NCBI GenBank assembly: GCA_973895155.1 | Contig: OZ316891.1 | Span: 1,913,324 to 1,977,323 of the forward strand | Length of the DNA stretch: 64,000 nucleotides | Reading direction: 5' to 3' | DNA from: Marsupella aquatica | Taxonomy: Eukaryota; Plantae; Marchantiophyta | Shown: piece by piece, positions 1-63,630 of the stretch | How positions within the stretch are numbered: the stretch's first letter is position 1 | How the letters are laid out: every line of letters begins with the position of its first letter | The notes under the pieces: generated by a model | What the model was told of the DNA's origin: nothing | Seen by the model: only the letters and a program-made list of their open reading frames with translations | Database searches by the model: none | Position numbers and translations under genes: made by a program

Positions 1-3000
1 CTCTTCAGGTTGGGACACAACCAAAATATCTGGTTTTTCCCCAACAACTGAACGAGATCGTGGCACATATGTGATGACAAGTGACCATTCCTCTGGGTTT
101 GGGGGGTATGGAATATAGAAACATTATTCCACATGACTTGGAAAAGTGAACGTCTTCGATGTTTGCCAATGAGATGGCTGGAAACTAGTGGCAGATATCT
201 TTAGCGGTGTAAATCCACACTCATCTTGAAGCACGGTAGGACTGTTACCTGCAAGGGTCACTTTGAACCACTTGCACTTGAAGACATACTCTTCAAACTT
301 TGATTGTGCATCATAAGAGATCACTAGGATCTCCTCTATCTTTCCATAATGTGGCACAACATCTCAAATAATATTTGTGTCATGGCGACTGTTGCGGGAA
401 TCTTGAGAGAATTGTCCTTGAACTCCATAATCAAAGGTACGACCCCTCTTCTCATCAAGGGAAGAAACCCTAAAATCCACCAAACCATAAGGACATGTTA
501 CAAAAATAGGCATAAACATATAACAATTAATATCACATGCCAAAAAATTATCTCTTCAATATATGTGGGTGTATTACACATAAATTAAAATCACCATAGA
601 TGAAAGGTTACTAAGGTACTTGGAAATAACCTGAAATGTCTCCCTTGTGTCTACATTGCCGTCCTTGTTGTAACCATTCTCAAGGGACCATGAACAATGG
701 TACGGACATCATCTATGATAGCTGGAAAATGTAATAGATTCTCTCCCCTCGCTACCATGTCATCCACCTCAACCAACTTCTCCTTCATGTAGTCATGGTA
801 CTTTGGAAAGATCCTTGGTCTTCTACTGGTACTTTTGGCATCCTCATAGAAATCCCTCCATTCTTCCATGATAGTGCTGTTACTCAACATGAATGTGGTT
901 AGTTGTTTCAACTCCACTGGTGTCAACATGCGGGTTTTGATAGCACCTGTTAAACGATCCTCCTCATCTTCCCTCTCCTCTACCCAAGTACGGGGAGAGG
1001 TACGATCAATTGTGGCCAATATGTTACTGCAATAGAACATACTCTCTGCTGCCAAGTATCCTGTAGCCATGCTTCCCTCAACCTGTGCCTGGTTACGTAC
1101 ATAACCCTTTAATACTGCCATGTACCGTTCCAACCAATACATCCACCGACAATGCACAGGACTAGCAATGGCCACCTCATGAACAAGATGAACAAGTAAA
1201 TGCACTTGGCAATCAAAAAAGGAAGGGCCTTTTCTAACTTGCATACCACCTCTGCTGCCAGTACCTCCATTCCCGGGATCTCTTCATAGTATATCTCCTT
1301 AGAACATGTACCCATCTCAATAGTTTTCCCAATGACCAAATGGCAGATCTTGCACTTCTGAACTTGCCAAACCTATTATGGCCGCGGGCAATATATGTTG
1401 CAATAACTGATGATAGTCATGCGTCTTGAGATACATTGGCCACTTATGATTGTCCTCCATCCCAAAGGCCTTCCGGAGATTGGCACCATAACCAGTAGGA
1501 AACCGCATGCCTCCTATGCGATTCCTAAACTCCCTTCTCTGGCCAACAGGAAGCACCCATGGGGCTGAAGGTCGATGTTCTATCCCTGTGATAGGATCAA
1601 TTGTGACCCATACATCTGGATGCATCTCAAGATCCTCATAAGCCTCCCTAAAGTTAGTGTCCTTTTCTCCACAGAAAGCCTTTATCAAAGCCTTTCCCAC
1701 ATTTCCCTCAATGTGCATGGGGTCTAATAGATGGCGGATCTTCAACTCTCCCCAATAAGGCAAAGTGGTTAATATACTCCATCTAGTCAACCTGCTACCC
1801 TCAAATTGCATGGGATCCTCCGGGTTTGCCACTCTATCAGCCAAGTCTTTCCAATGTGCAAAAGTTGTTGGCTCTGGTATATCACGTTCATCACCAAAGG
1901 CCATATCAATGGAGGAAAATAGTAGTGGGTCAAACCTCATCTGATGGCCCATTGGCAGAAACTTTGTATGCCCAAGATAAACAATCTTGTGAAGGTGTGA
2001 TGAGTACTTGGCTATATCACCAAGACTTGGGCCACAAGTGGAGCAAGCCTTGTAGCCTTGGGTTTGCAACCCACTCACAAAGCCAAATCCTGGTCATATA
2101 GACACACATAATATAGAATTAGCACATGGAAATGACGGGATAACATGCATTATCATATCATGTTGGATGTAAACAAAAAAAGTGTTGTAGTTTCATAGTT
2201 CTTACCTGGGTAGTCATGCATGGTCCACATACAAACCCCTTTTAGTTTAAAAACCCGTCATATGCCCATATTCCGTCCCATAATTTTTGGAGTTCCTCAA
2301 CCACTAATGCCAAATAGGTGTCCATCATGTTCTTCACCTTCTTTGGTCCTGGGATAATCAAAGATAGCAATAGAAAGCCCTTTTTCATGGACAACCATGG
2401 TGGAAGGTTGTAATTCATGAGAACCACCGACCAAATTGATGTAGGTCTCCCCTTCCCTCCAAGTGAATGAGGGCTAACCTCATCTAATGCCAACCCAAGT
2501 CGCACATGCCGAGGGTCACACTCAAAATCTGGCCATGTTGACTCCACATGTTTATGAGCAGGAGAGTCAACTGGTAATCGCATCACACCGGGCTCCAAAC
2601 GATGCTTCTTGTGCCATACCATCAACTCGGCCAAGTCAGAACATCTATACATGTGCAACAAGCGAGAAATTATAATGGGGAACCAACGAACTGCTTTTCT
2701 TGGCACCTTCCTGGTTAGCATGTTTGGGTCATACCGTGGCTCATGACATAGTGTGCATTTTGTCATATGGGCTTTGTCCCCATGAAATAATATGCAATCA
2801 TTCACACAAGCATGAATGATATGGTAATCCATGCCAATGGATGAGAGAATCTTCTTTGCATCCTTCCAAGTTCCAGGCAACACATTCTCCAAGGGTAACA
2901 TCAAGTCATGACAATATTCAAATATGTCTGATAACATAGAATTGCTTGCCTTATGTTTGGCCTGAATGTTCAACAACCCCAATATGGCTGACAAACGACT

Positions 3001-4759
3001 CAACCGAGCACCCTCAAAGATAGGTGTCCGGGCATGTTCCTCAGCCTCCTTCCATTGTTGTTGTCCCTCTGGAGTATGTTGTGGTCGTGGGTCATTTTGG
3101 GGGGCAGCTCCTTCAACACTAATGTCAGGGACACCATCTTCAACATCAACCATGAAGTCATCCATGGCTGTGTCCTGGTCATGCATGACCTGGTCATCAG
3201 TCTGAGGTGTTGCTTCCTCATCACCATGATCACTTACATCATTACTTGATGAGGAATCATCCTCTGATGGTTCTCCCTCTTCTGGCATGCCCATCTCCCG
3301 ATATGCTGCTCTCAACCTTCGTGGTAACATTTGTTGAGATGGTTGCACATTCTACGCACGACACAACCAAAAAACCTCTTGATATATATTTCACCAGGTA
3401 CAACAAAAACAGACTTCAGACCATTCATTCAAGACAAATTAACAATCAGTTTTAAGGATTGATTGCATGCATTCACATTAAGAACTTAAGTGAAGGGCCA
3501 CACCAAAATTATACTACTCCAAAATGAGGCCAGAGGACATGTATATAATGATAAGTGTGAAGTACACACAAGGTACAAGAGGATGTATGACATGGCTCCC
3601 TAATCCCACTCATAGTGTGTGAATAACTCATCTCCAGCTCTAATAGTCCTAGTGGCAAGAACTAAGCAATGGTCCTTATGATATGTCATTCCATATGGTG
3701 CCGGCATTGGGCCATCAGTAAAAACCCACTCACAATTGGCCCTACACTTGGGTCGAGTCCCCATAGTATTATTTATAAAGCCAGCAATATTCCCATTACA
3801 TACGGGATCACCGTCTATCACCCGCTACTCACTGTACCTTCTAGTGCTACCATGAAAAGTATACATCTCTAGGGCATATGTTTTCCACTCACGATGTTGT
3901 GCAAGGATCATGTTCCAGTCTCTTCTCTTGTAGATGGGTCCACCGTATGGGAACAAAGTAGGACCCTCTCTGCCACGAGCACTTGACCCACTCCCATCAT
4001 CCATGATGATATCCTCACAAGAAAATACTCCATATCCGTGTCTCTCTCCAAGTGTGGAAGCTTTCACAATCCAACGTCTACCCCAAACCACAATCTCCTC
4101 ATCATAACCGGGAAAATAAGGCAAGCCAAGAGTCATAGGATCCCAATCTTTGATGATAGAGGCACACTTGCCAATGAATGAACAAATGCCCTACCTACCC
4201 TCAACTAGTGTTCTTGATGGGTCATTGGTTGCTCGTGGCCTCCTCTTGGACTGGGGCCTAGACCGGGGTCTTCGTGTCTCAGTGGGCACATGAGACTGTT
4301 CCTCTTCAGTCCCATGATTGGTACTGATCCCTACACCCAAGGCTTGTGAAAGTGCATTGCCTATAGCATCTAAAACTCCTTGTGATGGGACATAGGGTGG
4401 TGGTGTCACCGGTCTACGCATACGGGATCCCTATTCCATGCAAAAACCCACAAAAAACCATATGTGTAAACATTGATTCACTTATGAAAATATGAGGGAA
4501 AAAAGGCAAACAATTGAAATCCACGTACCATATGGGATGAAGAAGCCCCCGGAGTAAGACCCCTGTGACGTCCATATCTCTCAATATGTTGAGCACACAC
4601 ATAAGATTTTTGAGAAACTTGGCCCACACATCTGGTGCACTCACAAAGTCTCCAAGGAGGACCACGAGGACCGGTAACCTCAGGTTGAGGAGGAGGGGGT
4701 ACATCATCGGAGGAGGAGTACTCACTATTGGATAGTTCAGAGGAGGATGACATATCCAT
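1..4759 (-). pseudogene. CACTA Tnp2/TnpD-type transposase (Transposase_21, DUF4218 and DUF4216-like regions) with stops and frameshifts
   Basis: Motifs IHACVNDCILF, RHVRLGL, NYNLPPW, LLSLIIPGP, WTMHDYPG, LDPMHIEGNV, LKTHDYH, HLLVHL, RWMYWLER and FKCKWF. Putative exon 1 at 4759-4529 (CECTRC...HIERYG); main exon from 3351; introns at about 2205-2090 and 630-470; frameshifts near 2250 and about 1200-1350. Confidence 0.9.
3600..4430 (-). pseudogene. SET-domain protein exon carried inside the CACTA element (two in-frame TAG stops)
   Basis: ORFs 4191-4421, 3825-4136 and 3600-3821 are one reading frame broken only by TAG at 4191 and 3825. SET motifs occur in order: VKAST-x4-HGYGVFS-x2-DI, YGGPIY, GNIAGFINN, ANC, LVLATRTIRAGDELFTHY. 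Confidence 0.8.
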
Positions 4760-5699
4760 TGCTCGGGGGGTTGACTATCAACAATCTTAGGAACCACGTG
4801 CGATCCAAAATAGGTATTTTTCATATAAATTAGCTAAATTTTTAAAAAGCGTAGGAAGCAAAAGAAGGTATTATAAACCTATATTTGTAGAATATTCTCT
4901 AATATATACCTTAGAATAGGTATATATTAGAGAATAAAGTAAAATAGGTCATTACTATTGAAAATAGAGAATATTTTTAGAATATTCCCATTATAAAATA
5001 GGTGTGTTTATATTAGACTAGGATCTCACGTGGTACCCCAAAATATACACTAAGTTAACCCCCCGAGATCCACTGCCACATTACATTGCATGTAGGGCAT
5101 GATTAGAATCCCTCTCCGTCGGCCTAAAAATATCCTAAAACTAAACTGCAAAAACCCTTTTTTGTTGAGCATGAAACCCAAAGGAGAGTGTCATGCACAA
5201 AAATATCACATTGTCACCCTTGGGAAAATTGTAACGGTCTAAGCCCTGAATTAGGTTAGTGAATTACCTGAATGAGACCCGGGCTCAACAGTGCCTATAG
5301 GTCGTGTGGCTCAATGAACATGAGCCAAATCTAGAAGTAGGAGGAAAATACTGGAAACAAAATGTAAGTTTTGGATAGTCATTAGCATCTCTCAAGTTGT
5401 GGAACCCCAAACATAAGTTACACATATATATATTCTTGCAAAACAAAAAATGGCAAGGTGTATGAAAAATCTCCACTAACAACACTACATACATGTTATA
5501 CCTTTTAGATGCCTGGGTTCCCACAATGCATATGCATTAGACAAAAGTTGAGGAAGTAGTGATGTCCCTGGGCTGTATCATGATTACATGGGTTTTCCCC
5601 TCAATTGTTAGCATAAAAACCTCTTAGAACTTGCCCTCATAAGTTACCATAAAATTAACCCAAGTGTCCATGAAAATAGAACCTGTCTTTCCCTCCTAA

Positions 5700-6120
5700 G
5701 TTGGCCTAAACCCCAAAAGCCAAAACATAAACACCTCCTCTTACTCCAATACATATAAGCCAAACATTCATAAAATGAAATCCCCCTGGCCAAACCCAAA
5801 ACATAAAACACCTCATATTACCCTCCAATCTGAGCCCAACGTACCTTCATAAAATAAACCCTCCCCCAACCAAACCAAACGTCAAACATAAAATCCCTCC
5901 ATTTACCCTCCAATACACATAACCCCAACCTTCATAAAATAAAAACCCTCCCAACCAGGCAAAACCCAAAAGCCAAAATATAAATCCCCGTCTCTTACCT
6001 TCCAATATAACCCCCAACATTCTGAAATAACACTCCCCCCCAACCAGGCCAAACGCAAAAGCCGTAACATAAGACCCCTCCTCTTACCCTCCAATGTCAG
6101 CACTTTTAAACCCCCCAACC
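5700..6120. repeat. Degenerate tandem repeat (about 85-95 bp, about 5 copies) between the divergent transposon genes
   Basis: Recurring blocks resembling CCAAACCCAAAA(G)CCAAAACATAAA..CCTC..TTACCCTCCAAT. Confidence 0.65.
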
Positions 6121-6435: not shown

Positions 6436-8548
6436 ATGGCAAGCAGAGGGGGAATTGGAGGTGATGGAGGAGCTTCTGGCAGCAGCGGAGGTAACCACTT
6501 AGAGGAGGAGGATCCACTTCAAAAGATCGTGGATGACCATTTCTCGGTTGCGCAGTTGAGTAAGATTGATTTCACCTCTCCAGCAGGGCTTGCATTGTTG
6601 AGTGCGTTATTGGGCCAGGCCTTGCAATCTGGTCTCAGTGCAGGGAAAGCAGCAAGAGAGGAGGAAGAAAGGAGGACAGCCGAGCAGAAGCCGCTGAGAA
6701 GAAGCGAAAGAGGGATGAGAGAGCTCAGGCTGGAGTACTCTCCCCTCAAGCCTTGGAAAAGAAGAGGAGGAAAGATGAGAGAGACTTGATGAGGAAACAG
6801 AGGGAGGAGCAGAGAAAGAAGGAGGAGGCAAGGAGGAAGCTGCCTCTGATTACATTAGAGGATGAGGGAATTCCCACAGAGCTTGCTTACAATGGGGCCA
6901 AGAGCACAATCAGACACATTGTGTCCACAAATTTTGCAAGAGGAGTCGAGTGGGGCACTCTCTCCAAGGCAGAGCAGAAGCGAATGATCAATCAGGTGAA
7001 AGATGCATTCCAAAATGGAGGAGAGATGGATTCACAGTGGCTTGCTGATAAAATCTCAAATTCCATGTCACAAGCACGATACCATGACAGGATGAAGATC
7101 AGGGCTCACCTGAGAGATCTGGTGGAGTACAGGAATTTGGGGAGGCCGCTGCAGTTCTTAGAAGATATCTGGCAGGCCTTCTATGCCACGGAGGTGAAGT
7201 TGAAAGCAGCCAGGGTCCTGAATGAATTTACAGAGAAGTTGACAAAGGCCCAGAAGGCAAAGGAGGTCGGGAAGTCTGACCGTGACCTGAAGATGATGGA
7301 GCAGAAGGTGGCCCAGCTGCAACAGGTTGTAGCAGAGGTGGGAGATCTGCCCAACAAGTTCTTGAAGGCAGTTGAGAGAGTCCGAGAAAGGCCCAACATC
7401 ACCCACAGGCTTGGTCAAGGTGGCCTCCCCGGCCTCAAAGCAGCATTAGTGAGTGCACCGCCCTCTCCTCTCTTGACTTCTTACTCCTCCAATTTCTATT
7501 CCAACACACCTGCAATGCCCCAACTCTTTTCTACTGTGGCACCAAGTACTTCCAATTGGAGTTGTTGTGTCAGATTAGGTCACGTACATTTGCTTCCCTT
7601 TCGACTTTTTGTCATAACAGAGTTTGCGAAGCAATTGCGATGCACGTCGCTTCGCAAACCTTGTTATTCACTTTTTTGGAAATAATTTTGCGATGCCCTT
7701 GTGAAGCCATGCGCATCTCAATTACTTTTGCAACCTAGTTTTCCCTTACGTTTGCAAAGCTTGAGACTTCGCAAAATTCAAAAATTTGAATTTTTGAAAA
7801 TTTCAAAACGTTCAAGTGTTGTTTGAGGGTCGTAAGTCCCCATGCCACCCTTGTAAAACCACCCCCAACCTAAGCCCCAACCCCACCAGCACCTAATTAA
7901 CCCCTCTAATTGTTTTAAGGCATTTTGGCTTGCCGTTATTGCTTGGTTTTGACCAATTGTGCCGGTTTTTGTTTTGGTTAGTACAAGAGGTACAAGAGGA
8001 AGATCACAACGCCTGAGATGGAGGTGGGCTAGAAACATGGGAAGGAGCATCTCTTTCGGCAAGTTGATCAATTATTGGTGAGCGTTAATTTTCAGGTTAA
8101 TGTGTTGATTGCATTTATGAAAAATTCCCTCTTATGTCATTCACTTAATTGTAAGGTTCTATATGACTAATGCATGGCTGGTTTGCTAATGTAACAGAGA
8201 CCGGATGATGATGGTGACTCCCATACCGAGGGTGATAGTAGCGATGAGGATGAGGAGGGGACAGGGGAGGGGAATACTGCTCCTGCTAGTCGAGTCAGGC
8301 CAACTAGCATTGGAGAGCAGTCATTTGCATCAGCACACTCCACTGATGTTGCGAGTGGTAGTGCGGTAGGGGATGGGGATGGTGATGGTGATGGTGATGG
8401 GGATGGGGATGGTGGTGGTGATGAGGATGAGGATGAGGAGGGAGACCAAGAGGAGGAGGAGGCCCCGGTCCCCCCCCAAGAGCACTCAAGGGCAAGGAGA
8501 AGGCCAAGGGGAAGAAGTCAAGGAGGGGCAGGAACTCTCCTTTCTAGC
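6436..8548 (+). pseudogene. CACTA accessory ORF2 (TnpA/Ptta-like by position), coiled-coil with an acidic tail, frameshifted
   Basis: ATG at 6436; frameshift near 6753 into the 310-aa ORF; donor GTGAGT at 7449; probable exons at about 7983-8077 and 8198-8548 with an Asp/Gly/Glu low-complexity stretch. Lies inside the CACTA terminus. Confidence 0.55.
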
Positions 8549-8829
8549 TCTATCTAGATAGGTGCCTAGATTACCCTAGAGACTTAGGTAGTTCACATGT
8601 ATAGGGGGATTAGCATGGACATGCAACTTTTAGCTAAGGGTTCTTACCCTTCCATTTTGTAACTTTTGTACATTTAAATGAGTAATGTCATTTTAATCGC
8701 GGCATTCCGGTCTACCTACATCCCTTTTCTCCCTGACTCCTTCAACTGTATGAATTGTCTCCCTAAACCACTAAACCCTATTATACCCTAATACTTCAAA
8801 AATACCTTTTGCAAAACACTTGAGAACTA

Positions 8830-9335
8830 GATGTCATCTCAAATAGCCAAGACACAACCATCACAAAACGTTCTAAACGCTCATCCTCACAAATTTTGCG
8901 ACATTTTTTCAATCGCAAATATGCGAACACATGATTTCCGCACGTTTGAGATGTGTTTAATTTTGCAAATGTAGCGAACATAAATGTATCGCAGTATTGA
9001 GAGAAAGAATGGCTTGCAATCTACCGATGTGTCCTAAATCGCAATCTGGCGATGATTTAAGCATCACTACATTAGCGTTTGTCGGCGAATCACAAATGCT
9101 CCTATAGTTCCTGCTTCGCAAATATTGCCGTAGGTATGGCATCGCAGTTGTGCGATGTTAAAAGAGTCGCAAAGTGCGAAGCTTTTGTGAAGGTCCGGTT
9201 GCGAAGGTGTGGGCATGGAAAAGAGCGAAGATGTTGAGATGTGCGGCCTTTCGCAACAAGGAGTTGGCCAATATTGTTTCCTTTGTTGCATGCGAGGGAG
9301 GGTGTTTCGCAAAAGAGGGTCATTGTGTTGTAGTG
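8830..9335. repeat. CACTA subterminal repeats and terminal inverted repeat
   Basis: Many TCGCAA/TTGCGA/GCGAA motifs in both orientations, ending in TGTAGTG. Confidence 0.75.
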
Positions 9336-17542: not shown

Positions 17543-17766
17543 CTCACGTACTAATATCCTTGGTAGCTCACACACACTGGTGGTCCTCCTGGAGTTTGGG
17601 CCCTTCTGGAGCCTATTTAAGCCAAAGCAAGCCCGTCAAAACTTCACATGGTGATCGGGAATTAATTCCAAGCTGTTGAAGAATCTTCCTTCGCTGATAG
17701 TTTATCCACTAGTCCTGCGGCGTTGTTGGCAAGTGTCAGGATTAGGGCACTTATCCTTTTAAGCAA

Positions 17767-19245
17767 ATGGAGGATCCTCTCGATTGGGCATCGGATGGAG
17801 AAGACGACCTCCTCTATGACAGTGAAGAAGATGGCGACATCCTCTATGAGAGTGAAGAAGATGACTGGTGTGAGAATGACAAGAACAATGAGCAGTCAGG
17901 CTATGAAATCCTAAGTCAGGGGTACATCCAGCAGCGCCAGGAAGACGTGGTTTCTACGGTCACCAGGATCCTACCATTCTCGAGGCCTGAAGCTGTTGTT
18001 CTTTTGCAAAATTTGGATTGGAGGGTCAGTAACGTGCTTGAGGAATGGGCTGCAGATGACTACGGAATTCGCGAATTTGTGGGGCTTGTCCAATCCCATC
18101 CACAACAGGAAGAGGAAAGGAGATCTCTTCCAGACATGACATGCGGAATCTGCTACGAGTCGCACAATTTGGAGCGAATGAAATCGGCCGCGTCGTGTAG
18201 ACATTTCTTCTGCGACACATGCTGGACGTCATACATTCACACCTCCATTGAAGAAGGTCCAGACTGTTTAACTCTGCGCTGCGCTGATCCGTCCTGCAGC
18301 GCTGCTATCATGGAAGACATGGTTCTGTCGTTGGTCTCACAAAAGGACGGAGCCAAGTATGCAAAATTTCGGCTAAGAGCGTTCGTGGAAAGCAGAATAA
18401 CGGCCAAGTGGTGCCCGGGTCCGGGGTGCGAGTATGTTGTGGATCGTAAGCATCGTGCTGAGTCGTTGTCCATTCTGTGCAAGTGCTCCCACAAATTCTG
18501 CTGGAATTGTTTGCAGGAGGCTCACCGGCCTGCAGATTGTGAGACTGTTGCAAAGTGGGTTCTGAGATCTGGTTCAGAATCCGAAAACTTGACCTGGATT
18601 CTAGAGAACTCCAAGGCTTGTCCCAAGTGTCAGCGACGGATAGAAAAGAATGAGGGGTGCATCCATATGACCTGCCAGGCACCCTGCAGGTTTGAATTCT
18701 GCTGGTTCTGTCTTGGAGATTGGACGAGTCACGACGAAAGAATCGACGATTGTAATAATGACGCTGCCTTGAAACAGGGTCAGCTTGATGCAGCACAAGA
18801 ACGAAGAAACATGGCTAATGACTATAGTTACACGCATTTCTATGAACGCTGGGTTGCGACTGAGTCTTCCGGGACTAAAGCCCTTGAAGTTCTTCAGCAC
18901 GTGCAGTCCATGATAGTCGACAAGCAATGCCAAACTAAGTCCGAATTGGAATTCTTGAATAAAGCATGGCTGCAGATCGTCGAGTGTCTCCAAGTTCTGA
19001 AGTGGACGTATGCACATCGCTACTATCAACCTGACCATGATCAAATGTTGGAGTACTCGCAGGAGGCAGAAGCATTACTGGAGAGACTCCAGGAGTGCGC
19101 CCAAAAGGAGGTGCAACAATTTCTTGACGGTCAAGAGACTCAAACTAGTCTCAGCGAGGACCGTATTAAACTTGTAAAATTGACGACTTTAGCAGAAGAG
19201 CATTTTGAGCACTTTGTACAATACGTGGAGAATGGACGCGCGTGA
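17767..19245 (+). CDS. ARI: ARIADNE-family RBR E3 ubiquitin ligase, single exon, 492 aa
   Basis: Acidic N-terminus; RING1 CGIC...CRHFFCDTCW; IBR WCPGPGC...CKCSHKFCWNC..EAHRPADC; RING2 CPKC..RIEKNEGCIHMTC..C.FEFCWFC; Ariadne domain LKWTYA. Confidence 0.93.
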   Translation: MEDPLDWASDGEDDLLYDSEEDGDILYESEEDDWCENDKNNEQSGYEILSQGYIQQRQEDVVSTVTRILPFSRPEAVVLLQNLDWRVSNVLEEWAADDYGIREFVGLVQSHPQQEEERRSLPDMTCGICYESHNLERMKSAASCRHFFCDTCWTSYIHTSIEEGPDCLTLRCADPSCSAAIMEDMVLSLVSQKDGAKYAKFRLRAFVESRITAKWCPGPGCEYVVDRKHRAESLSILCKCSHKFCWNCLQEAHRPADCETVAKWVLRSGSESENLTWILENSKACPKCQRRIEKNEGCIHMTCQAPCRFEFCWFCLGDWTSHDERIDDCNNDAALKQGQLDAAQERRNMANDYSYTHFYERWVATESSGTKALEVLQHVQSMIVDKQCQTKSELEFLNKAWLQIVECLQVLKWTYAHRYYQPDHDQMLEYSQEAEALLERLQECAQKEVQQFLDGQETQTSLSEDRIKLVKLTTLAEEHFEHFVQYVENGRA

Positions 19246-30891: not shown

Positions 30892-31407
30892 CTATTCCTG
30901 CATAGTTCGCGTCGATTGCCTCTTTGTGGCAACTTTGACCTTGATCTCGTCCGACAATTTGGGTAACGTAAGGCTCGGGTCGGCTTGCAGAGCCAGAGGG
31001 GCCTTCACCATATGGATACTCTGCTCCAACTCGGCTGCAGCTTCCTTCCTTTCCGTTGACTTCTTGCTCTTCATTCGGCTCTCCCAGAACTTCGACTCCC
31101 GCTTCACCCGCACCTCCTCGATCTTCTTAATTGCCTTAATGGTCTGCTCCACCACATTCCTGTCATACCTCTCAGGCCTATTCCGCCTCCGCTCAAGCTC
31201 GAACGTCGTATCCTGCGCGAGCTCCTTCCCGTGCAGCTTCCTGTACGCCTTCGTCCACTTCACCTTCCGTGGATTCCTCTTCATTTTGAAATTCTTGTGA
31301 CATTTCGACCTGCAGAACCGAAACACCTTCGCATCATTACGCACGAAAGTAATCCCATGGCCGGGATACACCGTCGAGGAACAGAACCAGCAGTTCTCTA
31401 ATCTCAT
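30892..31407 (-). CDS. RLP24: Ribosome biogenesis protein RLP24 (eL24 paralogue)
   Basis: [56 protein letters not shown]. Confidence 0.96.
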
Positions 31408-31660
31408 CGCTGCGGCTGTCGCGGTTCCAGCCGATCACTCTCCTTCCTTCTATTTCTTCTCTCACCCACTTCAATCCGCTCCAATCTGCCCAAATCCGCG
31501 GCAAAAGTGGCAGTAATTGGGGTCTAGGAGACGATCAACCGAACCGAAAACCGAGAGAATTCTCGAGCAGAGGAGGTGATCTTCCAGAAACAACACCTCG
31601 TGATCGAAAGAAGAAGACCGTCAGAAGGGAATGAGGTTTCTGCTGTAACCCTACACTCCG

Positions 31661-47705: not shown

Positions 47706-50700
47706 ATGAAGATGATTCTCTTGCTAGTAGCATTTCTGGTCGGAATCCTCACTTCCTTGCAGTCTACTGCTCAAGGAGCCTGTAAGTTTCTTCTCCTTTT
47801 GTTGATTCAAGGGCAAGAATTTTGATTTCGATTGTAAAATTGAGTCAGGAATATCTCTACTTTCTCGTAAATTCATTCTACGTACGAGCTTGCAAAATGC
47901 TGAGGTTAGATATTTGACCTGAGAAGTCTTAGATAGATAGTATGACAAAGATGAGATTAAGTAGTGTTGATTACAATTCAACAGACCTCATTCAGATTAT
48001 TGTTGCAGAGCTAGCGGACGACAATTCCGTTCTCAAGTGAAAGCGAATCGACGAATGAAGTACAAACAACTAACTTGAGTTTCTGGTGGTTCCGACCTGC
48101 AGCATGCCCGCTTAATTTTGCCGACATTCCGCAACCATCTCCGTATTGTTTCAGCTCCAATTCGTTTGATTCGCAATGTTGTTACGAATCGTATTCCCAT
48201 TTTGCGGTTGCCCTGGCAAGAAACACCAACTCATCGGCTGATAGACGGCTATTTTTGGATGCTCCAGAGCAGAATGCTTGTGCTATGGATGCCCAAACGA
48301 AAAATCTTATCCTTGATAACTGTGGCATAGCACCACCACTCTTCACAGCCAATAACGGCCCTTGTCTGTTTGCCAAAGAGAGTGAAGTGGAGGCCAACCT
48401 AGTTAACACTCATGTTACGTTTGCTTCTGTATCAGCCACTTGTGCAAACGTTCAACAAGGAAATGGATGCCCACCATGTAGCCAAGTTTACTTTGCTGCC
48501 ATAGAGGTATTGGTGAACCAGACAGGGAATGACTCTTCCGGGGCATCTGCTAAAACAAACTGCGGGACAGCTCTTCTGGTATCTTTGGCAAGTCGCAGTT
48601 TCGATCAATTAGTCTGGCGAGATTCTCTTTACTCATGCCTTCAGATACCCTTGACGTCAGTACCAGGTACATATATGATGCTAGCATGAAAATACTGACA
48701 CCGTTATATATTCCATTAGATGCCAGTCAGTGTATTCTTTGAATTGATAACGAGGGACCATGAGTACTTTCAAGCCACGTTTAAAACGCATGAAACCTGT
48801 CTTTTACGTGTCAGCATAACCGAGAATATAACCCACTGTCAGATGGCATAAAACTGATTGTTGGGACCATGTAACTATTATTGACCTCGCACTGTTTAGC
48901 TTAAAGATTCCAACACTGAGGAAGCTTGTTCGTTAATGAGGAAGTTTCTAACAAGTGGGTTTCACGTAATGGGCGGTCATTGACATTTGGTGGACTGGCA
49001 GCTTCAAGCTCTAAAGGTACTTCCTTCCCTTCAAGAGTTTATAATTACGGCAGGGTTGGAATCAAAGTGTTTCTTTCAATGAAGGTTGGATTTGCTTGCA
49101 CCCAACATTTGTAGTCTCTGGTATATTAAACTGCATTTTTCTTTAGTTGGTAAACCTGACGAGTAGGCAATTCGCTGGAAACTGATAACAATAATTGTGA
49201 TCTCCAGACTAACTCGTTCTTTTGTGTCTTCCCCTCGACACAGGAAAGGTGACATCTAAATTGGGTCTGACTACTGTGCTTGAAATACTCTTGGGTGTTT
49301 CTGTCGCGTTGATATTCCTTGGAGCCATCTTCTATTTTAGGAAAAGACATGGGTTTGAAAACCGCTCTGCTGCTGGTGGTGGTGACAAGGATGGTAGTTC
49401 TGTAGGTACTGCCTGCACTTAACATGCTCCAAATTCAGCCTCTGAAATCTGAAACGAACTTGTTAATTCAGTCGCTAGATCAAATTAATGCAGGTCATAA
49501 ACAAAAATGACGGTGGGAAGTGATGGATCATGGTGGCAGTCAAGCATGGCGTTCAAATTAGAGCTCATTTATTTTTCTGGGAACGATAATTGCACACTAA
49601 GCAGTCCAGAGTGCATGTCATTATCTGATTGAGCATGAAAACCTATGGGTTTGCAGATAGTGATCCGATCAAACCAGGTGAAGGGCCTGCTAATGAAGGG
49701 ACTTTGTATGAGTTCTCTGCGAAAGAACTCAGTAGAGCAACAGATGGCTACAGTGAGACGAACATCATCGGAGAGGGAAATTATGGCAAAGTTTATAGAG
49801 GTACCCTTCCAAGTGGGCAACTGGTGGCCATCAAGCTCATCATGAAAGATGAGAAGTCGGAGTCCTCCTTTTACAAGGAAATTGAGAACCTCTCCCGAGT
49901 TCGCCATCCAAATTTGGTGACTTTGCTTGGCTACTGCCAAACGGCCGACAAAAGCTTGCTTGTGTATGAGTACTGCCCGAAAGGAAGCCTCTGGTACTAC
50001 CTATTTGGTAAGCTTGAGATCCAGGAGGTTTCCTGGATTGTTCTTGCCCTGTTGTTTATTATCCTGACAAGAACAATTTTGAGGTAGTTTCAAGGAAAGT
50101 TCAATTTTAGTCACGGGAACTTGTGTGCTTGAACCTAGGTGGTGGCCCAAAGCTCACCTGGGGTCAACGCCTCAATATTGCTTTGGGGAGTGCACGTGGA
50201 ATAATGTATCTGCACATGAACCCTGGTGGATATATTGTTCATCGAGATATAAAGGTAATTTATTATTCAGACTTCTGTGAAATACATGACCCAGTTACTT
50301 CAATCCTCTTCATATATGCTCTAAAAAGTTCTCCTACGTCTTCAAGTGCTAGAAGCCAACTTTGTCTTGTAACTAGGTTCGTTTTGAAGGAATTGATTCT
50401 TGTTGATCTCCTTTCTCTTGATATCTTACCTTTCAGCCGACAAATATACTTATGACAGACAGTTATGAGGCCAAAGTTTCGGACTTTGGGTTGTCAAGGT
50501 TCATACCAGTTGAGGAAACTCGTGTTTTCACTGCGGTGAAGGGAACTGCTGGGTACTTGGATCCTGAGTACGTGAATCAGGGAACTTTGACATTTTCCAG
50601 TGACGTATACAGCTTTGGAGTTGTGCTCCTGCAACTCATATCTGGCAGACGGCCAATCGATTTAGATCCTTTGACAAGTCGGGTGTCACTGGTCAGAATG

Positions 50701-51526
50701 GTAATCTTTTGCTGATTCTCTAACCTGTTGGTTTCGTTGATAGACGTACTATGGTGACCCTTCGTCATAATAATTGGAATTTTATGACAAAATCTCATCC
50801 AATCAACTGTCAATATGATGACAGCGTTGCTAAATCTGGCAGGTTCAGTTTCAATTATTTTCTTTTCTGTAATTCAATTTCTACGTTGATAACAATGTTT
50901 TGTATGAAACAATTTGCTTTTCAGGCAAATCTTGTCATGAAAGGGGAGGCAAAGATCTCAGACCTGGTGGATCCAAGCCTAGAGAATGTCTATTCAGAAT
51001 TAGCTTGTCGAAGAGTGCTTGAGATTGCTGTCAAGTGTACAGCGGACTATAGAGTTTACAGACCAAGTATGATAGAAGTACAGCAATATCTCGAAGAAGC
51101 TTGGGTTCTCGGTGGCTCTCCAATGTCTTACGAGACGACCCCGCCGAAGAAGAAACCGGAGATAGGAGGAAACTATTCTCCCCATTCAGCACGGGTGAGA
51201 TTCCAACTCTGATTTAATTCAGGCTTTATCTTGTATCTTGTATCTGGCAGGCTCTGACTGTAAGTTAGCTCTCAATGCGTTTTCAAAACTTAAAAGGAAA
51301 GTAGTACAAATTGGAAGTTAAACGGAAAAGCAGATTGTGGAAATGGTATTCTATACAGAGCACCCCTGAACGATAGAATGGAAGAATTCATTGCCTTCCA
51401 GTTTTGGTTGATTTCACATGTGTGGGTGTTGTTGCATTCACCTAGGGCGAGGAGAGGCCAGTTCATCCTTCGCTACAGTCTTGGCAGGGAGCCTTTGGAG
51501 TAACAGGGGATGACCTCGACAGGTGA
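47706..51526 (+). CDS. Receptor-like kinase with a Cys-rich SPARK-like ectodomain
   Basis: Signal peptide MKMILLLVAFLVGIL (exon 47706-47781); ectodomain CPLNF..C..CC (48103-48666); TM exon at about 49244-49405; kinase motifs IGEGNYGKVY, VAIK, HRDIK, VSDFGL, GTAGYLDPEY and SDVYSFGV. The last exon (about 51446-51526) is tentative. Confidence 0.88.
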
Positions 51527-54300: not shown

Positions 54301-55912
54301 ATCCTGACGAGGGCCAGATTAAGCCACCAGGTTCCACAAAGGGAACTAAGTAACCAAGATATCAATGACTAACTTGTCCCAATCTCACATCCTTTGTACC
54401 TATAGCCAACGCAAATTAATCTTGGGTAAGAATTGGGCTACACGTTTTGACTACGAAAGAGGCTAGTTGAGCTGTAGTATTAGCATGGTTGGCCAGATTT
54501 TGAACCTTGAACAGTACTGGCTATGGTTTGGTCGTGAATATCTAGAGCGAGCAGCAGTGAGCTGTGTCGCCAGTCTGCCCATCTAGCTCGCCAAACGGAT
54601 GGGTGCCTGGCCAGGCTGACTGATTGCCCAATTCCGTCCATCAAGACTATGGCTGCCAAATTACTCCGTACATCATCGATCACCTCACGATAGTTAAGCT
54701 TCAATTGTCTACGGAGCAACGACCTTCAACGAAATCCAGCATTATTACACATTACTGTGAGCTGGATCGCTTCACTCCCCGCCGTTTCAATTCAGAAGCC
54801 AGAGATCCCCATCAAAACCCACAGCGACACGACCATCAACGAATTCAGTCGATCGAAGAGCCTCTCTCGACGAAACGAACGCAAAACAATGCAGACTTCG
54901 TGATCTCGATCTCTCATCCATCATGTTCTAGATACTGAACTGAACTGAACTCCACCAAGAAGGGCCCTAACTAATAAACAGGACAAGAGCGACTGTCATG
55001 AACATGTCATGAACATTCAGACAGACGAAGAAGCCCAACGAGTCAGTAAATTAAACGCAGCCTTCATGACCTCTCTCATTTTCATCTTCGAGCGAGATCC
55101 ACCAAGAAGGGTCTTCCGCGGCGCAGCTAAACACATAAAGCAGCAGCTGGCTCGCTAGCTGGCTGGCTGGCTGGCACACAGGAACTACCTTCCCCTTCTC
55201 GTAACGACAATCTGGTCAAATCTAGTCAGATCCAACTCTCCTTGAATGAGTATGAGTAATGAATGACATGTCAAATTGTACAGCGTCAGATGCCAGGCAT
55301 CCTGTAATCGCGAAGCTCAGTAGCTGTCTGAATCTGGGTATTTTACGTACAGGACGCAAAGCAAGTTCGGTGCATCTTGCCACTTCCCTACCTTTTCTAC
55401 TACGTATTGAAGCATAGTTATACAAGAAGGATGAATTTCGTTTATTGCGTCAAATGGAAAATTGATTGGCGAATATTGTTCTAAGCTTGATTTTTCGTTA
55501 TTAAAAAATTGGGATTTTACTGTATACAGTGTGGGCGCTACGCCTCGATCTTTTGTGAGCGTACGCTCTCGGGGCCTGTGAAGCAGATCTATATAAGGGC
55601 TTGTCTCTTGGATTCGCCCAACATTTTGTATTGAAGTCGATCTCCGCATTAGGCTCGAACCTGTTTGATTCGATACTTAGACAATTGAGATATCTACACC
55701 GCAGCTAGCTTCGAGATCCTTAGCTACATTGTGAGATTCGGCGTCGTATTCGTCATTGCGGGGCAATTTCGAATGTTGAGAACCGACAACATGTGCAACT
55801 GTGAATGATTAGAATTGAGAACGTGGAAGCCGCTAGTTAGTGCAATTCTCCATTGAAAGCAACCGGCGAGCGAGCTAGAGGCGAGTCGAGCTTTTTCGTC
55901 GGAATCGAAACA

Positions 55913-56287
55913 ATGGCGTCGTGGAATGAATTCTTTAGGATGAACAACTACAACTACAACCACCGGGCTCCCGAGTGGATGACTTCAGGGTCGGGATCGG
56001 TGGCGTCGCAGGTGATCCGGTACCCAGCGCAGCCTTATGATGACTACTTCTACGGCGCTGCTTCGGTTGAATATCCCCGTGTGATTACAATGGAGCTGAA
56101 TGTTCCCATCTGCTGTGAGGGATGCGAGGAGCGGGTCCTGTCGCGTCTCATTGACATAGACGGAGTGCAGTCCGTGAAGTGCGACCAACTCAAACAGAAG
56201 GTCACCGTCTCGGGCACTGCTGCGCCAGCGGAGATCCTGGCAGCTTGTAAGAAGCTCTTCAAGCGCTCGAAGTGGTGGTCTTCTTGA
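55913..56287 (+). CDS. Heavy-metal-associated (HMA) domain protein, HPP type (no CaaX), 124 aa
   Basis: MELNVPICCEGCEERV...GVQSVKCDQLKQKVTVSG. TATA-like CTATATAAG at about 55589. Confidence 0.88.
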   Translation: MASWNEFFRMNNYNYNHRAPEWMTSGSGSVASQVIRYPAQPYDDYFYGAASVEYPRVITMELNVPICCEGCEERVLSRLIDIDGVQSVKCDQLKQKVTVSGTAAPAEILAACKKLFKRSKWWSS

Positions 56288-57944: not shown

Positions 57945-58320
57945 TATCCAATTGCCTCGCTAACAACAACCTGGTTAGTAACCCCTTATTTTTCAATAAT
58001 TATACAATTTCCTCGCTTACAAACACCTGGTTAGTAACCCTTACTTTTCAATACAATTGCCTCGCTAACAACAACCTGGTTAGTAACCCTTATTTTTCAA
58101 TATACAATTGCCTCGCTAACAACAACCTGGTACTAGCCTCCATTTTGGGGGACTCCTCGTTTGGTTAGCGAACTACTATAGCTAGCCATCTGGAGTCCTA
58201 AAAAAATTGAAAAATTGCCTCGCTAACAACAACCTGGTCCTAGCCTCCATTTTGGGGGACTACTCGTTTGGTTAGAGAACTACTGTAGCTAGCCATCTGG
58301 AGTCCTAAAAAAAATCAAAA
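57945..58320. repeat. Complex tandem repeat (AATTGCCTCGCTAACAACAACCTGG core, 5 copies)
   Basis: Three units of about 52 bp followed by two units of about 108 bp with the same core. Confidence 0.85.
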
Positions 58321-59339
58321 ACTATAAAATTCAGCAAAAAGCAAAAGAAACTTAACACCACTAGTGACTCACTAATAATTTTCTCATCTTTATAAATATT
58401 CCTTTTTGCTGGCGTTATACAATACCTCAGTGAAACAAAAACAAACTAAGGGGTGTTTTATTCATTTTGGGGTAATAGTTAGAAGTCTAACTACCCTTTA
58501 ACCTGGCCTTTAACCCAAGTTCTTTTTCTTTAATGTACTAGCTTGGGTGCCCCTGCTTTGATGATGAAAAGAAGTGAGTACATTCAAGCATGCTGCACCA
58601 TTCATTTTTGGAGACTTTAGTTACATGACTTACCTGTCCCCACCCCAATCCCTGCTTTTTGCTGACACCCCCAACTTTAATTACACCCCCCAATTCACTA
58701 TCTAGAGGCTTCACTCTAGACCATAGGCCCTTAAAAGTAGTGAGATAGTGATTATATAGCTACAGTAGATAACTCTAACATACTAGCCCAAGTGTCAGTT
58801 CTTTAACATAAATAGCTCAGGTGAGGACATTCACGCCTGCTACCCCAATCATCTCTAGAGACTATCCGGAACCCCATTTTCCACCCTCATCCTCAACTTC
58901 AATTAGACCCCATAGTCAGCCCAAAGTCACATAGTCTAGAGACTACATGATTAGATGCCTCTTTGGAAGTTTCATTTCATGACATAATAAATGTGATACA
59001 TAATATAGGTTACCTGTGTGTAGCCATCTCCTTGTTGTTTTCATAATCTATTGCCCAGAAACTTGTGATAGGTAACTTTGTTCTATCCCGCTTTAACATA
59101 ATATAAAGACGGTTTGGGCTGGGGTTCTAGTCTGTTCCCAGAGTGCTCAGAAAGCTTCCACTCTATCTCCTGTGAGCTTTTGTTAACTTTCTGGTCATAG
59201 AGTTATATCCTAGTAACCCCCTAGAGCCTAGTAAGCCCATGACTTCATGCCTACCTCCGTTAGCATTTCTTCACCTTCTGTTCAGAGGGTTACATCCTAG
59301 TAATTCCCTGGTAAGCCCATGCTCTCCTTATCCTATAAT

Positions 59340-60135
59340 TAGCAAAGCTTACTGCAGTGACTAAGGTAAACCATGGTAGCTTCTATCTTTATTTTATAAG
59401 TAGTAATTAAAGCTTACTGCACTGACTAAGATGAACCATTGTAGCTTATGTCTTTACCCTTTAAACCACCACTAGCCATGACAAAAACAACCTGGTTACA
59501 CCACAAAATGGAACGGGAGAGGAGAAGAATGAGAGAAAAGTGAGAGAAAGAGAGAATTATTGGACACCTTACCCATTCTTTTATATGGCTAGTGGTGGTT
59601 TAAGTAGTTTACTGCACTGACTAAGGTGAACCATGGTAGCTTCTGTCTTTATCCTATAAGTAGTAAAGCTTACTGCAGTGACTGAGGTGAACCATGGTAG
59701 CTTCTGTCTTTATCCTATAAGTAGTAAAACTTACTGCAGTGAATAAGGTGAACTATGGTAGCTAACGTCTTTATCCTATAAGTAGTAAAGATTACTGCAG
59801 TGACTAAGGTGAACCATGGTGGCTACTGTCTTTATCCTATGAGTAGTAAAGCTTACTGCAGTGACTGAGGTGAACCATGGTAGCTTCTGTCTTTATCCTA
59901 TAACTAGTAAAGCTTACTGCAGTGACTGAGGTGAACCATGGTAGCATCTGTCTTTCTCCTATAAGTAGTAAAGATTACTGCAGTGACCAAGGTGAACCAT
60001 GGTAGCTTCTGTCTTTCTCCTTTAAGTAGTAAAGCTTACTGCAGTGACTAAGGTGAACCATGGTAGCTTCTGTCTTTCTCCTCTAAGTAGTAAAGCTTAC
60101 TGCAGTGACTAAGGTGAACCATGGTAGCTACTGTC
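59340..60135. repeat. 61-bp tandem array (about 9 well-conserved plus 2 diverged copies)
   Basis: Unit AAGTAGTAAAGCTTACTGCAGTGACTRAGGTGAACCATGGTAGCTTCTGTCTTTATCCTAT; it shifts by 1 nt per 60-nt line. Confidence 0.95.
59461..59603. mobile_element. Non-autonomous TIR mini-element (MITE) inserted in the 61-bp array
   Basis: TTAA-ACCACCACTAGCCAT ... ATGGCTAGTGGTGGT-TTAA. An uninterrupted array unit has a single TTAA at the equivalent position (CCTTTAAGTAGT, about 60019). Confidence 0.75.
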
Positions 60136-61065
60136 GTGTGACGTAGGCGAAGTTCGTTGGGCGGGTATGGTATTGCGTGCTGGCTCTCTCTGTTCCATGG
60201 GCGACGAGTGTCCTGAGCGCCAATCGAGCCTCGATGGATTTCGCAAGAGATTTGTGCAGCACGGCTTTGTGACATCCGCAGATGACTGTGATGAGTTTTT
60301 CCTATCGACCAATTCCCGAGACTGTCACCACCTTCTTTCCATTCTTAAATGTTGTTGTGGGTCTTACTTTTCTCCAGTTCCTCATAGCCTGCTCCCACTC
60401 TGTCGCTTGTCGATGTCGCGTTTTGGTCTCGAAGATTTCGTTACCGCCTTTCCGTTCCTAATGCGTTCTGATCTGCAGTCCCTGATAGTTTCCGCTTTGC
60501 GGTAGCTCTTGTGGATCTGGACCAGTTGTGCTGATGCCGGAGGTGCCGACCGCGTGGTGCTCTGTACCGTTACTGGTTCTTGACAATGTGGTGAGTGCGC
60601 ACCGGTTGCTTGCTTGCTTGCTTGTCCGGGAGTAATTGCTGCCTCCAATCGAGAGTGGCTTGATAGAATTGCGCTGAAGTTTGAATTCCCAGGGCTCTTA
60701 ATTTGACGCTGTGGCGTTTTGTTTGTGAACCGAAATCTGCTCTCGTCTGCTCTCATTGATGAATGGCCTTGGGAGAGGGTTTGCGATCAGCTTACGAGAG
60801 GCCCTTTCAAATGAGTTTGGAAGATTGCGGTTGGGCCCTTTGACCCACAGTAGGAGCTCCTGATTGCGGGAAATCCGAGCTTCACTTTGTGATGAGGAGG
60901 GAAGTTTAGGGCGGGTTGTGTGGGAACAATGCATTTGATGTACGGGAAGGTGACCTGATTTCCGACCTGATGTGGTTTTTATCTTTACCAGGCCGGCGTC
61001 AATTTAAAGTTTGAAAGTGTCCACCGGGCGATCCCATTTTAGGGTTGGCAGCCGAGCAATTGAGA

Positions 61066-63630
61066 ATGGAGTCTGATTATCCGTTGGTAGAAATCAGCAC
61101 AATCGGACAGACGGAGGAAGATGTTAATAAGTCAGGAACAGTTTCTTCTGCTACTACGTTGGAGAGGGTAACAGAGCGGCGGGCGATGCTGAAGGCTATG
61201 GGACCCAGGCCAGGCCTGGAGGCGGTGGAGCAGGCCAGGCATGCCATTGAGAAAATCAATGCTCAACTTGAGGACCGGTTGGAAAGCACCTATCATGCGA
61301 CTGCGCCCATCGGTGTGAATGTTGCCGAATGGAGGGAAGCACAGGTGAATTATTTGTAAATACTTTCAATTTAAAACTGATTACCAAACGGAGGGAACCC
61401 AAATTGTGGCATGTAGAATGCTTTAATTTTTAAGACAGCAATTTTGATGTCAGTTGGCTCTTGATGAATTTGACTCAACCATGCAAGAGGGTCAACATAG
61501 ATTTAGAATCCATCAGATGATCATCCATTAACTGACCCAATGAATTGAGCATACTTAGCACAATTTGGCTTGTGCATAGTAAATTAAGAAGCAGTAAAAT
61601 GTCTAAGATTTTCCTCTCAATTGCGACACCTGGTGAGCCTTACTCCCATTTACTGAAGTATCGGGTACCGAATTCGGAATTTGTCTTTGATAACGCTTAT
61701 TGATGCGTAGCATTGTCGGTGTTCGGTATTGCAAAGCTGTATTCTTGTCCGCGCTCTTGTGATCCAGAGCTCCCCCATTCTCCCTGGGATGTCGTTGATG
61801 TTGAGAGCTGGAAATTTTTTCGTGCAAGAGGTTGAATTGCGAGAATCAGCAGAGAAGGAGAAGTCACCTTACGAAGTTATCATTGAATTGGACGAGGCGC
61901 ATCAGTTGTACGAAGATGAACTGGAGCAAGAAGAGCTAGCCTTGGACGGAAGGGTCAAATACGAGCCAGCAGCTGACGCTGACGATGGGAGCGACACCTA
62001 CGCCGCTGGTCTCATGCACGATGCTTTTGAGAACAAGCGAGACGGACTGGATTTGAGCCGGCGCAGCATGGTGCATGTTCCTGAGTTTTTTGGGCGAATT
62101 GTGTCTCTCGTCAGGCTAAATCTTTCCAGCAACCAGCTCCAGGTCCGTTTGCATTGTTTTCGTGGGATATTTGGAACTCGCCGGATCATTTTCTGCATTT
62201 TGCCGACATTTTTTCTCCTAGAGAGCACTGTTGACATCTGTTGTACAATTAAAACTCGGTTGCCCCAACTATCTTCAAGCGTGGGGAGTGTGAAAGCCAT
62301 GGGACTAGGTTGCACACCTGTGTCGTGCTAAAAACCTCTACCTTCGTTAGGCTCTCCTTCTTCTCTGGCTTAGATCTTGCCTAGACCACCACTGGATGCA
62401 AGGCCACTTTCTGTAAGCATAATCTGGACATTAGCAAATTTGGACATTGAGAGCTGTCAATTCGTTGGATTGGGTCTCGGTTCTCCATTGTAATCTTGTG
62501 ACAGGGCTTTCATCACTGATTGAAACTCTCCTACTTTGGTTCTCGTGTGGGCAGGTCCTACCGGACTCTATTGCCGGCCTTGTGAACCTCGTGGAGCTGA
62601 ATCTTCATTCAAATAACTTGAAGGCTTTGCCGGACTCAATCGGGCTGCTGACAAAGTTGAAATATTTGGATATATCCAGCAATGTGATGAAACGTCTACC
62701 TGACAGTCTTGGACGGTGCAGGTAAACCGGGCAGTCCCCATATTTTCGTAAGCGACTGTTTATTCGTCCTTCAAATTATAGTTTAAACCTGTTAGTAGCC
62801 TCGAGTCAAGCTAGAAACTGCCAACTAATCAGCTGCCGTTGGTCACGTTTCCGAACTACTTCAAAGGCAATTCTTTTGGTTGTACCGTGGAATATTTTGA
62901 TGATGGATTTGTCTGATATCGTGTGGTTTGATGTTTTCACAGCTCATTGATGGAGTTCGATGCTAACTTCAATCAAATCGACTTCATATCCACCGATTTT
63001 GGGTTGCTCTTAGTAAACTTACAGAAGTTGGATCTTCATCTGAACAAGTTGAGCTCTGTGCCGTCCTCATTCTGTGAACTCTGGTCCCTCAAATATCTTG
63101 ATCTGCATATGAATAAGCTGAGGGGCCTTCCTTCAGCCATTGGCAACCTATCTCGGCTAGAGTACTTGGACGTGAGCAGCAACTTCAACGACTTGGTTGC
63201 CCTGCCAGAATCCATCGGCGACCTCGTTTCTCTCGAACATTGCAATTTGAGCTTCAACCAGATTAGGGAGCTGCCGGACTCCATGGGAAGGCTCGAGAAG
63301 CTTAAGAAGTTGAATTTGGATGGCAACCCCATGGTTGTTCCACCAATGGAGGTGGCGGAGAAGAGTCTCGAGGCTGTGATGGAATACATGCGGGAAAGGT
63401 GGAGAAGAAGCATCGAAGTTGACGATCAGGTATCTGACGGTGGCAATGCTGCCCCCCCGGCAGGTGCCTACGACTACAATGCATGGCTTCCTACCTGGGC
63501 TGCAGCATCGGTCAGCTCATGGTTTGATGGTTGGTGGGGCAACACTGAAGCTGCGCCTGATGGAAGACCCGGGAACCGTGTTGAATCTCAGCCCGGTCGG
63601 AGGAATGACTTCTTAGAGCAACAATTGTAG
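61066..63630 (+). CDS. PIRL: Plant intracellular Ras-group-related LRR protein (PIRL), 4 coding exons
   Basis: N-terminal LGPRP-like motif ([14 protein letters not shown]); REsAEKEK..Y; LRRs [11 protein letters not shown]; GNP motif [13 protein letters not shown]. Exons at about 61066-61344, 61830-62142, 62555-62721 and 62943-63630. Confidence 0.92.

Follow-up and report, generated by a model that had tools for sequence, protein, structure and literature searches.

The window, the 64-kb stretch of Marsupella aquatica DNA that was analysed, contains one copy of a multi-copy CACTA element. The 5′ terminal inverted repeat (CACTACAAC..., 9320..9335, minus strand) starts at 9335, and 20 related loci, between them showing 18 distinct flanks, begin in the same way. 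The repeat at this end is that of a CACTA element; the 3′ end lies beyond the window. Only one related locus (L046) reaches a candidate 3′ end (16431), where the inverted repeat is imperfect and the flanks do not match in a check for a 3-bp target-site duplication. A second CACTAC-type motif at 9065 (plus strand) faces the repeat at 9335; it may delimit a mini-element of 271 nt or mark an end that was rearranged. No second copy of the element was found within the 64-kb window. The observed/expected ratio of CG is 0.27–0.37 over the element and 0.67–0.80 in the rest of the window, a depletion that would be expected of a methylated, decaying copy.

Scanning metagenome contigs with the first coding exon (exon 1) gave 68 loci, which come from few source assemblies and in some cases repeat one site. 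The layout across these loci consists of the terminal inverted repeat, a divergent gene (ORF-A), likely non-coding exons, exon 1, a short intron, a SET exon, a T-rich spacer and the Tnp2 transposase. Exon 1, SET and Tnp2 follow one another in this order both in the Sphagnum-type loci and in distant relatives. ORF-A lies on the plus strand (6436..8554; predicted exons ~6436–7448, 7976–8082 and 8195–8554), head-to-head with the SET/transposase unit, and is frameshifted in the window copy. Its first two blocks share 73–82% DNA identity with the Sphagnum-type loci, and its translation is homologous. ORF-A has no Pfam match at cut-off, and a TnpA-like role would be a guess. Degenerate direct repeats with a spacing of 85–92 nt occupy 5789–6101, between ORF-A and the exons upstream of the SET/transposase unit.

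Two predicted non-coding exons precede exon 1 on the minus strand. The 3′ part of the first (5502..5540, donor AAG|GT at 5501) is conserved in the window and three other loci (L037, L044 and L046), and this exon-like block is deleted in some Sphagnum-type loci. The second, exon 0 (5268..5350, 83 nt), runs from CAG|TATTT to CAG|GT, with the donor GT present in 63 and the acceptor AG in 48 of the 68 loci. Exon 0 is 76–81% alike across three element types at a synonymous dS of ~1, and may for that reason hold a regulatory element. Exon 1 is therefore probably not the first exon of the transcript. An upstream peptide reading frame spanning both non-coding exons was considered and dropped, as no frame is open in all types.

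A 306-nt MITE (4762..5067, no strand assigned) sits between the acceptor of exon 1 (next base 5072) and its ATG. It is flanked by an 8-bp target-site duplication (5075–5068 and 4761–4754), from the length of which we take it to be hAT-like, and it is very deep in the contigs of all four sequence runs. The MITE is missing from sister copies, in which 4753 joins 5068 and 314 positions are skipped (X1, X3 and X4). The sequence-only reading of this DNA had started exon 1 at ATG 4759. This codon lies inside the altered second copy of the 8-bp duplication, and the homologues start at ATG 4753; the comparison indicates that ATG 4759 is a by-product of the MITE target-site duplication and that 4753 is the homologous start. 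In another locus (L033:2238–4719) an insertion of ~2.5 kb lies right at the start of exon 1, near the site of the window MITE.

Elsewhere in the window, a single long open reading frame at 17746–19245 (plus strand) encodes an Ariadne-type RING-IBR-RING E3 ligase. Further frames presumably encode an RPL24-type ribosome biogenesis protein (30892–31434, minus strand), a protein kinase (49629–51212, plus strand), a heavy-metal-associated domain protein (55841–56287, plus strand) and an LRR protein (61711–63630, plus strand), each taken from resemblance. Tandem arrays with 61-nt and ~50-nt units are found at 59322–60215 and 57946–58319, respectively.

The first coding exon and its two candidate acceptors

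The exon described in the sequence-only reading, 231 nt from 4759 to 4529 on the minus strand, codes for CECTRC...HIERYG, with ATG|GTACGT in phase 0 at its end, as had been stated. With the corrected start the first coding exon spans 4529..4753 and consists of a Ser/acidic leader followed by the motif C-x-C-x2-C-x13-H-x4-G. With three cysteines and one histidine, this motif may bind zinc. A C-x-C-x2-C...H pattern occurs near the N-terminus of 53 of 150 related transposases, and the spacing in exon 1 is the commonest among them (36 of the 47 fitting the pattern). Against a profile of the 53 segments, at least one of which is an internal Cys motif (P0067), exon 1 scores 15.8 bits over profile positions 30–61 only of 75; this score was reached by none of 2000 shuffles and, when the cysteines were held in place, by 4 of 2000.

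The same exon had been equated with the transposase-associated N-terminal domain, for which PF13963 was the proposed search. Motif spacing and profile score fit a Tnp2 N-terminal module, but PF13963 matches neither exon 1 (E ≤ 1) nor its homologues (E ≤ 5), and hhalign gives a probability of 24% over 13 columns. PF13963 itself matches 11 of 23 related transposases at E ≤ 0.05, 8 of them above cut-off, and misses P0063, P0100 and P0124, which have the motif. The distance from the motif to the transposase core, joined through 3351, would be 148 residues. In P0080, P0124 and P0100, the motif-bearing proteins without SET from the neighbouring clade, it is 150, 158 and 194 residues, and the median over 48 proteins is 102.5. 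Exon 1 is likely to encode the N-terminal Cys/His module of the transposase, and can be read as its core in a divergent and reduced form.

Downstream of the donor, a predicted intron of 98 nt (4431..4528, minus strand, 46% T) leads to acceptor 1, AATAG|GGA at 4430. The SET exon (3600..4430, minus strand) then contains a linker and the SET domain, and ends with ELFTHYEWD and a stop. The frame entered at 4430 continues in phase 0 and matches PF00856 (E 2.8e-6 with stops read as X), which upholds the proposed entry into SET, although in the window copy two premature TAG stops interrupt it (4193–4191 and 3827–3825). Sister-copy contigs in all four sequence runs carry other letters at 4192 and 3827. 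The same junction between exon 1 and SET is present in gene models of Calypogeia fissa and of Sphagnum species (P0016, with 343 residues and 360 members, and P0015 are examples). As the method of prediction is not given for them these models are not transcript evidence, and those carrying exon 1 are probably ab initio. The Calypogeia (liverwort) proteins P0002, P0003 and P0015 are 62–64% alike to the Sphagnum (moss) protein P0016 over the alignment.

The T-rich spacer (3352..3599, minus strand) is predicted to form the 3′ UTR of a SET transcript as well as the 3′ end of the long intron. It closes with the TAG of acceptor 2 (3354–3352), after which the Tnp2 body (PF02992 and DUF4218; predicted introns 2205–2090 and 630–470) occupies 3351..1 on the minus strand and runs off the window. 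CGTAG|AAT at 3351 had been proposed to enter the transposase. The frame from this point is open for 369 codons and matches PF02992 (E 5e-31), with DUF4218 further down, but the gene is split by a stop and frameshifts. With stops in the SET frame and a broken transposase, the window copy cannot make either full protein; it is dead.

The donor GT is present in all 57 loci that cover it (68 examined), against 353 of 360 other GT dinucleotides of the intron. All 57 continue into the intron; they are DNA records throughout and silent on expression. Within the Sphagnum-type loci, acceptor 1 keeps its AG in 32 of 37, as compared with 942 of 1099 AG inside the SET exon, and acceptor 2 in 10 of 10, as compared with 23 of 26 in the spacer. 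These copies are ~94% alike and the rates equal background, so that only the comparison between types is informative. Single AG and GT sites are common, with many YAG sites, but the three sites considered here are kept at the same codon positions across types separated by a dS of ~0.5–1.4. The window, the Sphagnum type and L037 share the donor and acceptor 1 at a dS of ~0.4–1.5 over exon 1 and SET. The conservation of acceptors across copies, one of the checks suggested at the outset, is thus seen between types and is no better than background within the Sphagnum type. No junction of exon 1 with an acceptor is present among the listed joints of contigs in the four runs, a result with no bearing on expression.

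Acceptor 2 reads TAG|AAT in the window, in L037 and in all nine Sphagnum-type loci that reach it, and no variant letter is listed at 3351–3354 in the run contigs. The site lies seven codons upstream of the sequence MLPRR, a position kept in four element types. In contigs of all four runs a further type matches the window up to 3354 and is then unrelated, T-rich on the coding strand; its likeness begins at the AG, 21 nt upstream of the first ATG. The seven codons before MLPRR keep their frame and an N-x-x-P-S pattern, and the single indel seen among them is of 3 nt (L019). One protein (P0051) reads MWPSQEMLPRR. The start of likeness at the AG together with the seven in-frame codons suggests that a coding exon in phase 0 precedes acceptor 2.

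The SET exon, its relatives and its putative activity

Ratios of dN to dS were calculated by the Nei–Gojobori method on single decayed copies. For three pairs they are 0.16, 0.19 and 0.34 over the SET core and 0.07, 0.17 and 0.24 over the motif part of exon 1, with 0.08–0.10 for the transposase core. The whole of exon 1 gives 0.77 between L049 and L037. These values indicate that the SET core is under purifying selection.

The SET motifs are G-x-G, Y-x-G, N-H-S and EL-x-x-x-Y, and most SET proteins have N-H. A post-SET element closes the lysine channel of SET methyltransferases. In 35 aligned homologues of the SET protein G-x-G, Y-x-G, the Asn and EL-x-x-x-Y are kept wherever covered, and the position of N-H-S reads N-S, N-N or N-T. 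The frame ends 3–5 residues past the conserved Tyr in complete homologues and there is no post-SET region. Of ten proteins scanned for PF00856, the four without a match lack part or all of the SET domain; scores of the other six are 21.7–31.6 bits and five exceed the cut-off of 22.4. Because the His of N-H and the post-SET region are missing, activity is uncertain, and that the protein is an active SAM-dependent lysine methyltransferase is about an even bet.

Structural comparison adds little. Two AlphaFold2 runs on the SET protein gave a mean pLDDT of 37.8 and 44.3, too low for use, and a sequence search of the PDB with P0016 returned only haemoglobin noise. A profile search of the PDB gave two weak matches (E 1.2 and 1.4), both bacterial SET proteins that are also without the His. 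Neighbours by features in the Atlas are SET clusters, giant-virus and haptophyte ones included; as to the origin of SET, these offer a lead only.

Named protein relatives come from Sphagnum species and Calypogeia fissa. All 41 matches to the SET frame look like the window family, with no named host SET gene among them. Viral contigs gave no match that would bear on the origin of SET, and GTDB gave one weak match (L069, 32% over 64 residues). Among 150 transposase relatives the SET profile matches three (P0061, P0063 and P0066), which are 49–51% identical to the query transposase; P0063 has the motif, a SET part and Tnp2 in the order of the window. In a midpoint-rooted FastTree tree, built from 85 of 153 cores passing the length filter (158 proteins given), these three fall into one clade with the window family (support 0.953). 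The same clade holds P0060, P0062 and P0064, without visible SET. The simplest reading would be that a SET sequence was captured once, long ago, by the first coding intron of the transposase gene. The dS between the window and the Sphagnum type is ~1.0–1.4. Horizontal transfer between mosses and liverworts is possible.

Competing readings of the locus

Comparison of the loci indicates that a conserved, predicted SET exon is nested between the first coding exon and the transposase body. The order of the parts, the splice signals, their phases and conservation, and the selection on exon 1, SET and transposase are directly supported. We consider it likely that the first coding exon of the CACTA element has two alternative splice partners, one behind each acceptor. 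Splicing to the near acceptor would yield a Cys/His-motif–SET protein of ~350 residues that ends at the SET stop, its transcript probably being polyadenylated in the T-rich spacer. Use of the far acceptor would remove the SET exon within an intron of 1,177 nt and restore the usual Tnp2 layout. For the function, which we put at about even odds, the SET product would be a SAM-dependent lysine methyltransferase whose targets, chromatin or proteins of the element itself, would be modified in favour of the element, and the shared motif would serve in binding or assembly. The observation as first written is partly confirmed, and its interpretation is partly supported by these comparisons, which favour exon 1 as the transposase module, two conserved acceptors and a selected SET block; one promoter for both products and a methyltransferase targeted by the shared module are conjecture.

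The seven codons upstream of MLPRR also bear on the proposal that exon 1 belongs to the SET gene only. The transposase would then start at Met 3330, without the Cys/His module, and its mRNA would reach acceptor 2 from a non-coding exon or an internal promoter. A start there is possible, as every locus extending that far has Met 3330, with no variant in the run contigs; candidate non-coding exons are conserved upstream, and none of the 14 protein matches to exon 1 is a direct exon 1–transposase model. That the codons before this Met stay in frame with just one 3-nt indel, and that SET-free relatives have the motif at a matching distance, makes the proposal unlikely; moreover, two proteins (P0053 and P0054) are called from the later Met. 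Still less probable is a single long protein of motif, SET and transposase, in which a donor within the SET exon would bypass the SET stop. Fused models do exist (P0013, P0061, P0063 and P0066), but P0013, P0061 and P0063 leave SET at differing points that cut the domain, and only P0066 retains the SET end. All 12 loci that extend to the SET stop have it, and the SET exon has no strong conserved phase-0 donor: among 20 GT sites kept in three types, those in phase 0 match the donor consensus at no more than 4 of 7 points in every type, as compared with 5 of 7 in all three types for the donor of exon 1.

If splicing is as proposed, the SET product might nonetheless be without methyltransferase activity, serving as a binder of a histone tail or host silencing factor, or using the shared motif to regulate the transposase as a short, dominant form. 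This reading is compatible with the splicing part of the preferred one. The changed N-H motif, the missing post-SET region and Pfam scores that straddle the cut-off speak for it, the other motifs kept throughout the homologues speak against it, as does the lack of the same His in the bacterial SET proteins that are the only (weak) matches of solved structure; overall it is somewhat unlikely. Passive capture, in which the SET block would be a host fragment that rides along and does nothing for the element, is scarcely credible. The window copy and many sister loci have stops and frameshifts, as such a fragment might, but purifying selection at a dS of ~0.4–1.1, retention of SET across transposases just ~50% alike and the family likeness of all the SET-frame matches tell against it, and the dN/dS values largely refute it. 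The SET block appears old and selected, and the argument for an integrated system over passive gene capture has held in this respect. A fuller version of two-way splicing is rather doubtful as a whole: a bryophyte CACTA clade, possibly transferred between mosses and liverworts, would hold a switch by which the Cys/His module is joined to one of two partners, the transposase or an active lysine methyltransferase that the module brings to the element's own chromatin, the element would write its own histone marks, and splice choice would balance jumping against self-protection.

Known systems and significance

SET cargo is known from other transposons. It is carried by Helitrons and by the accessory gene PAG2 of red-algal Plavaka elements (EnSpm/CACTA) (10.1101/2025.02.11.637652). 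Like Plavaka with PAG2, the present element belongs to the CACTA superfamily and has a PF00856 SET domain as conserved cargo. PAG2, as described there, is an accessory gene beside the transposase locus and combines a DNA methylase domain with SET, whereas the SET exon of the window lies inside the first coding intron of Tnp2, lacks a methylase domain and is likely joined to a shared exon; the two are likened by description. The HarbingerS and MuDR families of Phytophthora are likewise DNA transposons that encode a SET domain (PMC12730594), but they are of other superfamilies and in other hosts, and the available text makes no mention of a shared exon. A transposon-borne factor proposed to act on the chromatin of its own element also recalls the anti-silencing VANC proteins of VANDAL elements, which belong to the MuDR superfamily; no SET is reported for these in the passages at hand, and their activity is shown where that of the SET protein is predicted (PMC12730594; 10.1101/2025.02.11.637652).

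Alternative splicing is similarly established in CACTA elements. TnpA and TnpD of maize En/Spm are spliced from one gene; the passage concerned also places separate TnpD and TnpA genes head-to-tail (PMC13547354). In Arabidopsis EN/SPM3 and EN/SPM7, alternative splicing of a single gene supplies both the transposase and an accessory protein, and Spm3 TnpA reportedly makes its elements hypomethylated at CG sites (10.64898/2026.08.24.746577). The Spm analogy drawn in the sequence-only reading is therefore apt in form, one CACTA gene providing transposase and accessory product, with the splicing predicted in the present case. It fails in the second product, which is TnpA in those elements and a SET protein here, with the separate ORF-A head-to-head upstream (PMC13547354; 10.64898/2026.08.24.746577). 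Among the literature matches listed, drawn from articles outside Repbase, there was no land-plant CACTA element with a SET exon and no nested layout, and the available parts of PMC4158355 and PMC11982613 contain nothing on SET in CACTA. As far as these sources extend, SET cargo and alternative splicing of CACTA genes are already known, and a SET exon nested in a Tnp2 gene appears new.

Transposon-borne writers of chromatin are rare, and the cases with SET in the same sources are oomycete Harbinger and MuDR, Helitrons and red-algal Plavaka. If the element reuses its N-terminal module on another protein, as it seems to, it would offer a handle on the role of the uncharacterised Cys/His module of Tnp2. 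Should the predicted splicing be true, the element would be able to produce an enzyme of its own for methylating proteins. A CACTA clade of land plants whose SET exon is under selection may provide a testable case in bryophytes, for the residue methylated, for specificity towards the element's own family and for the control of mobility by splicing.
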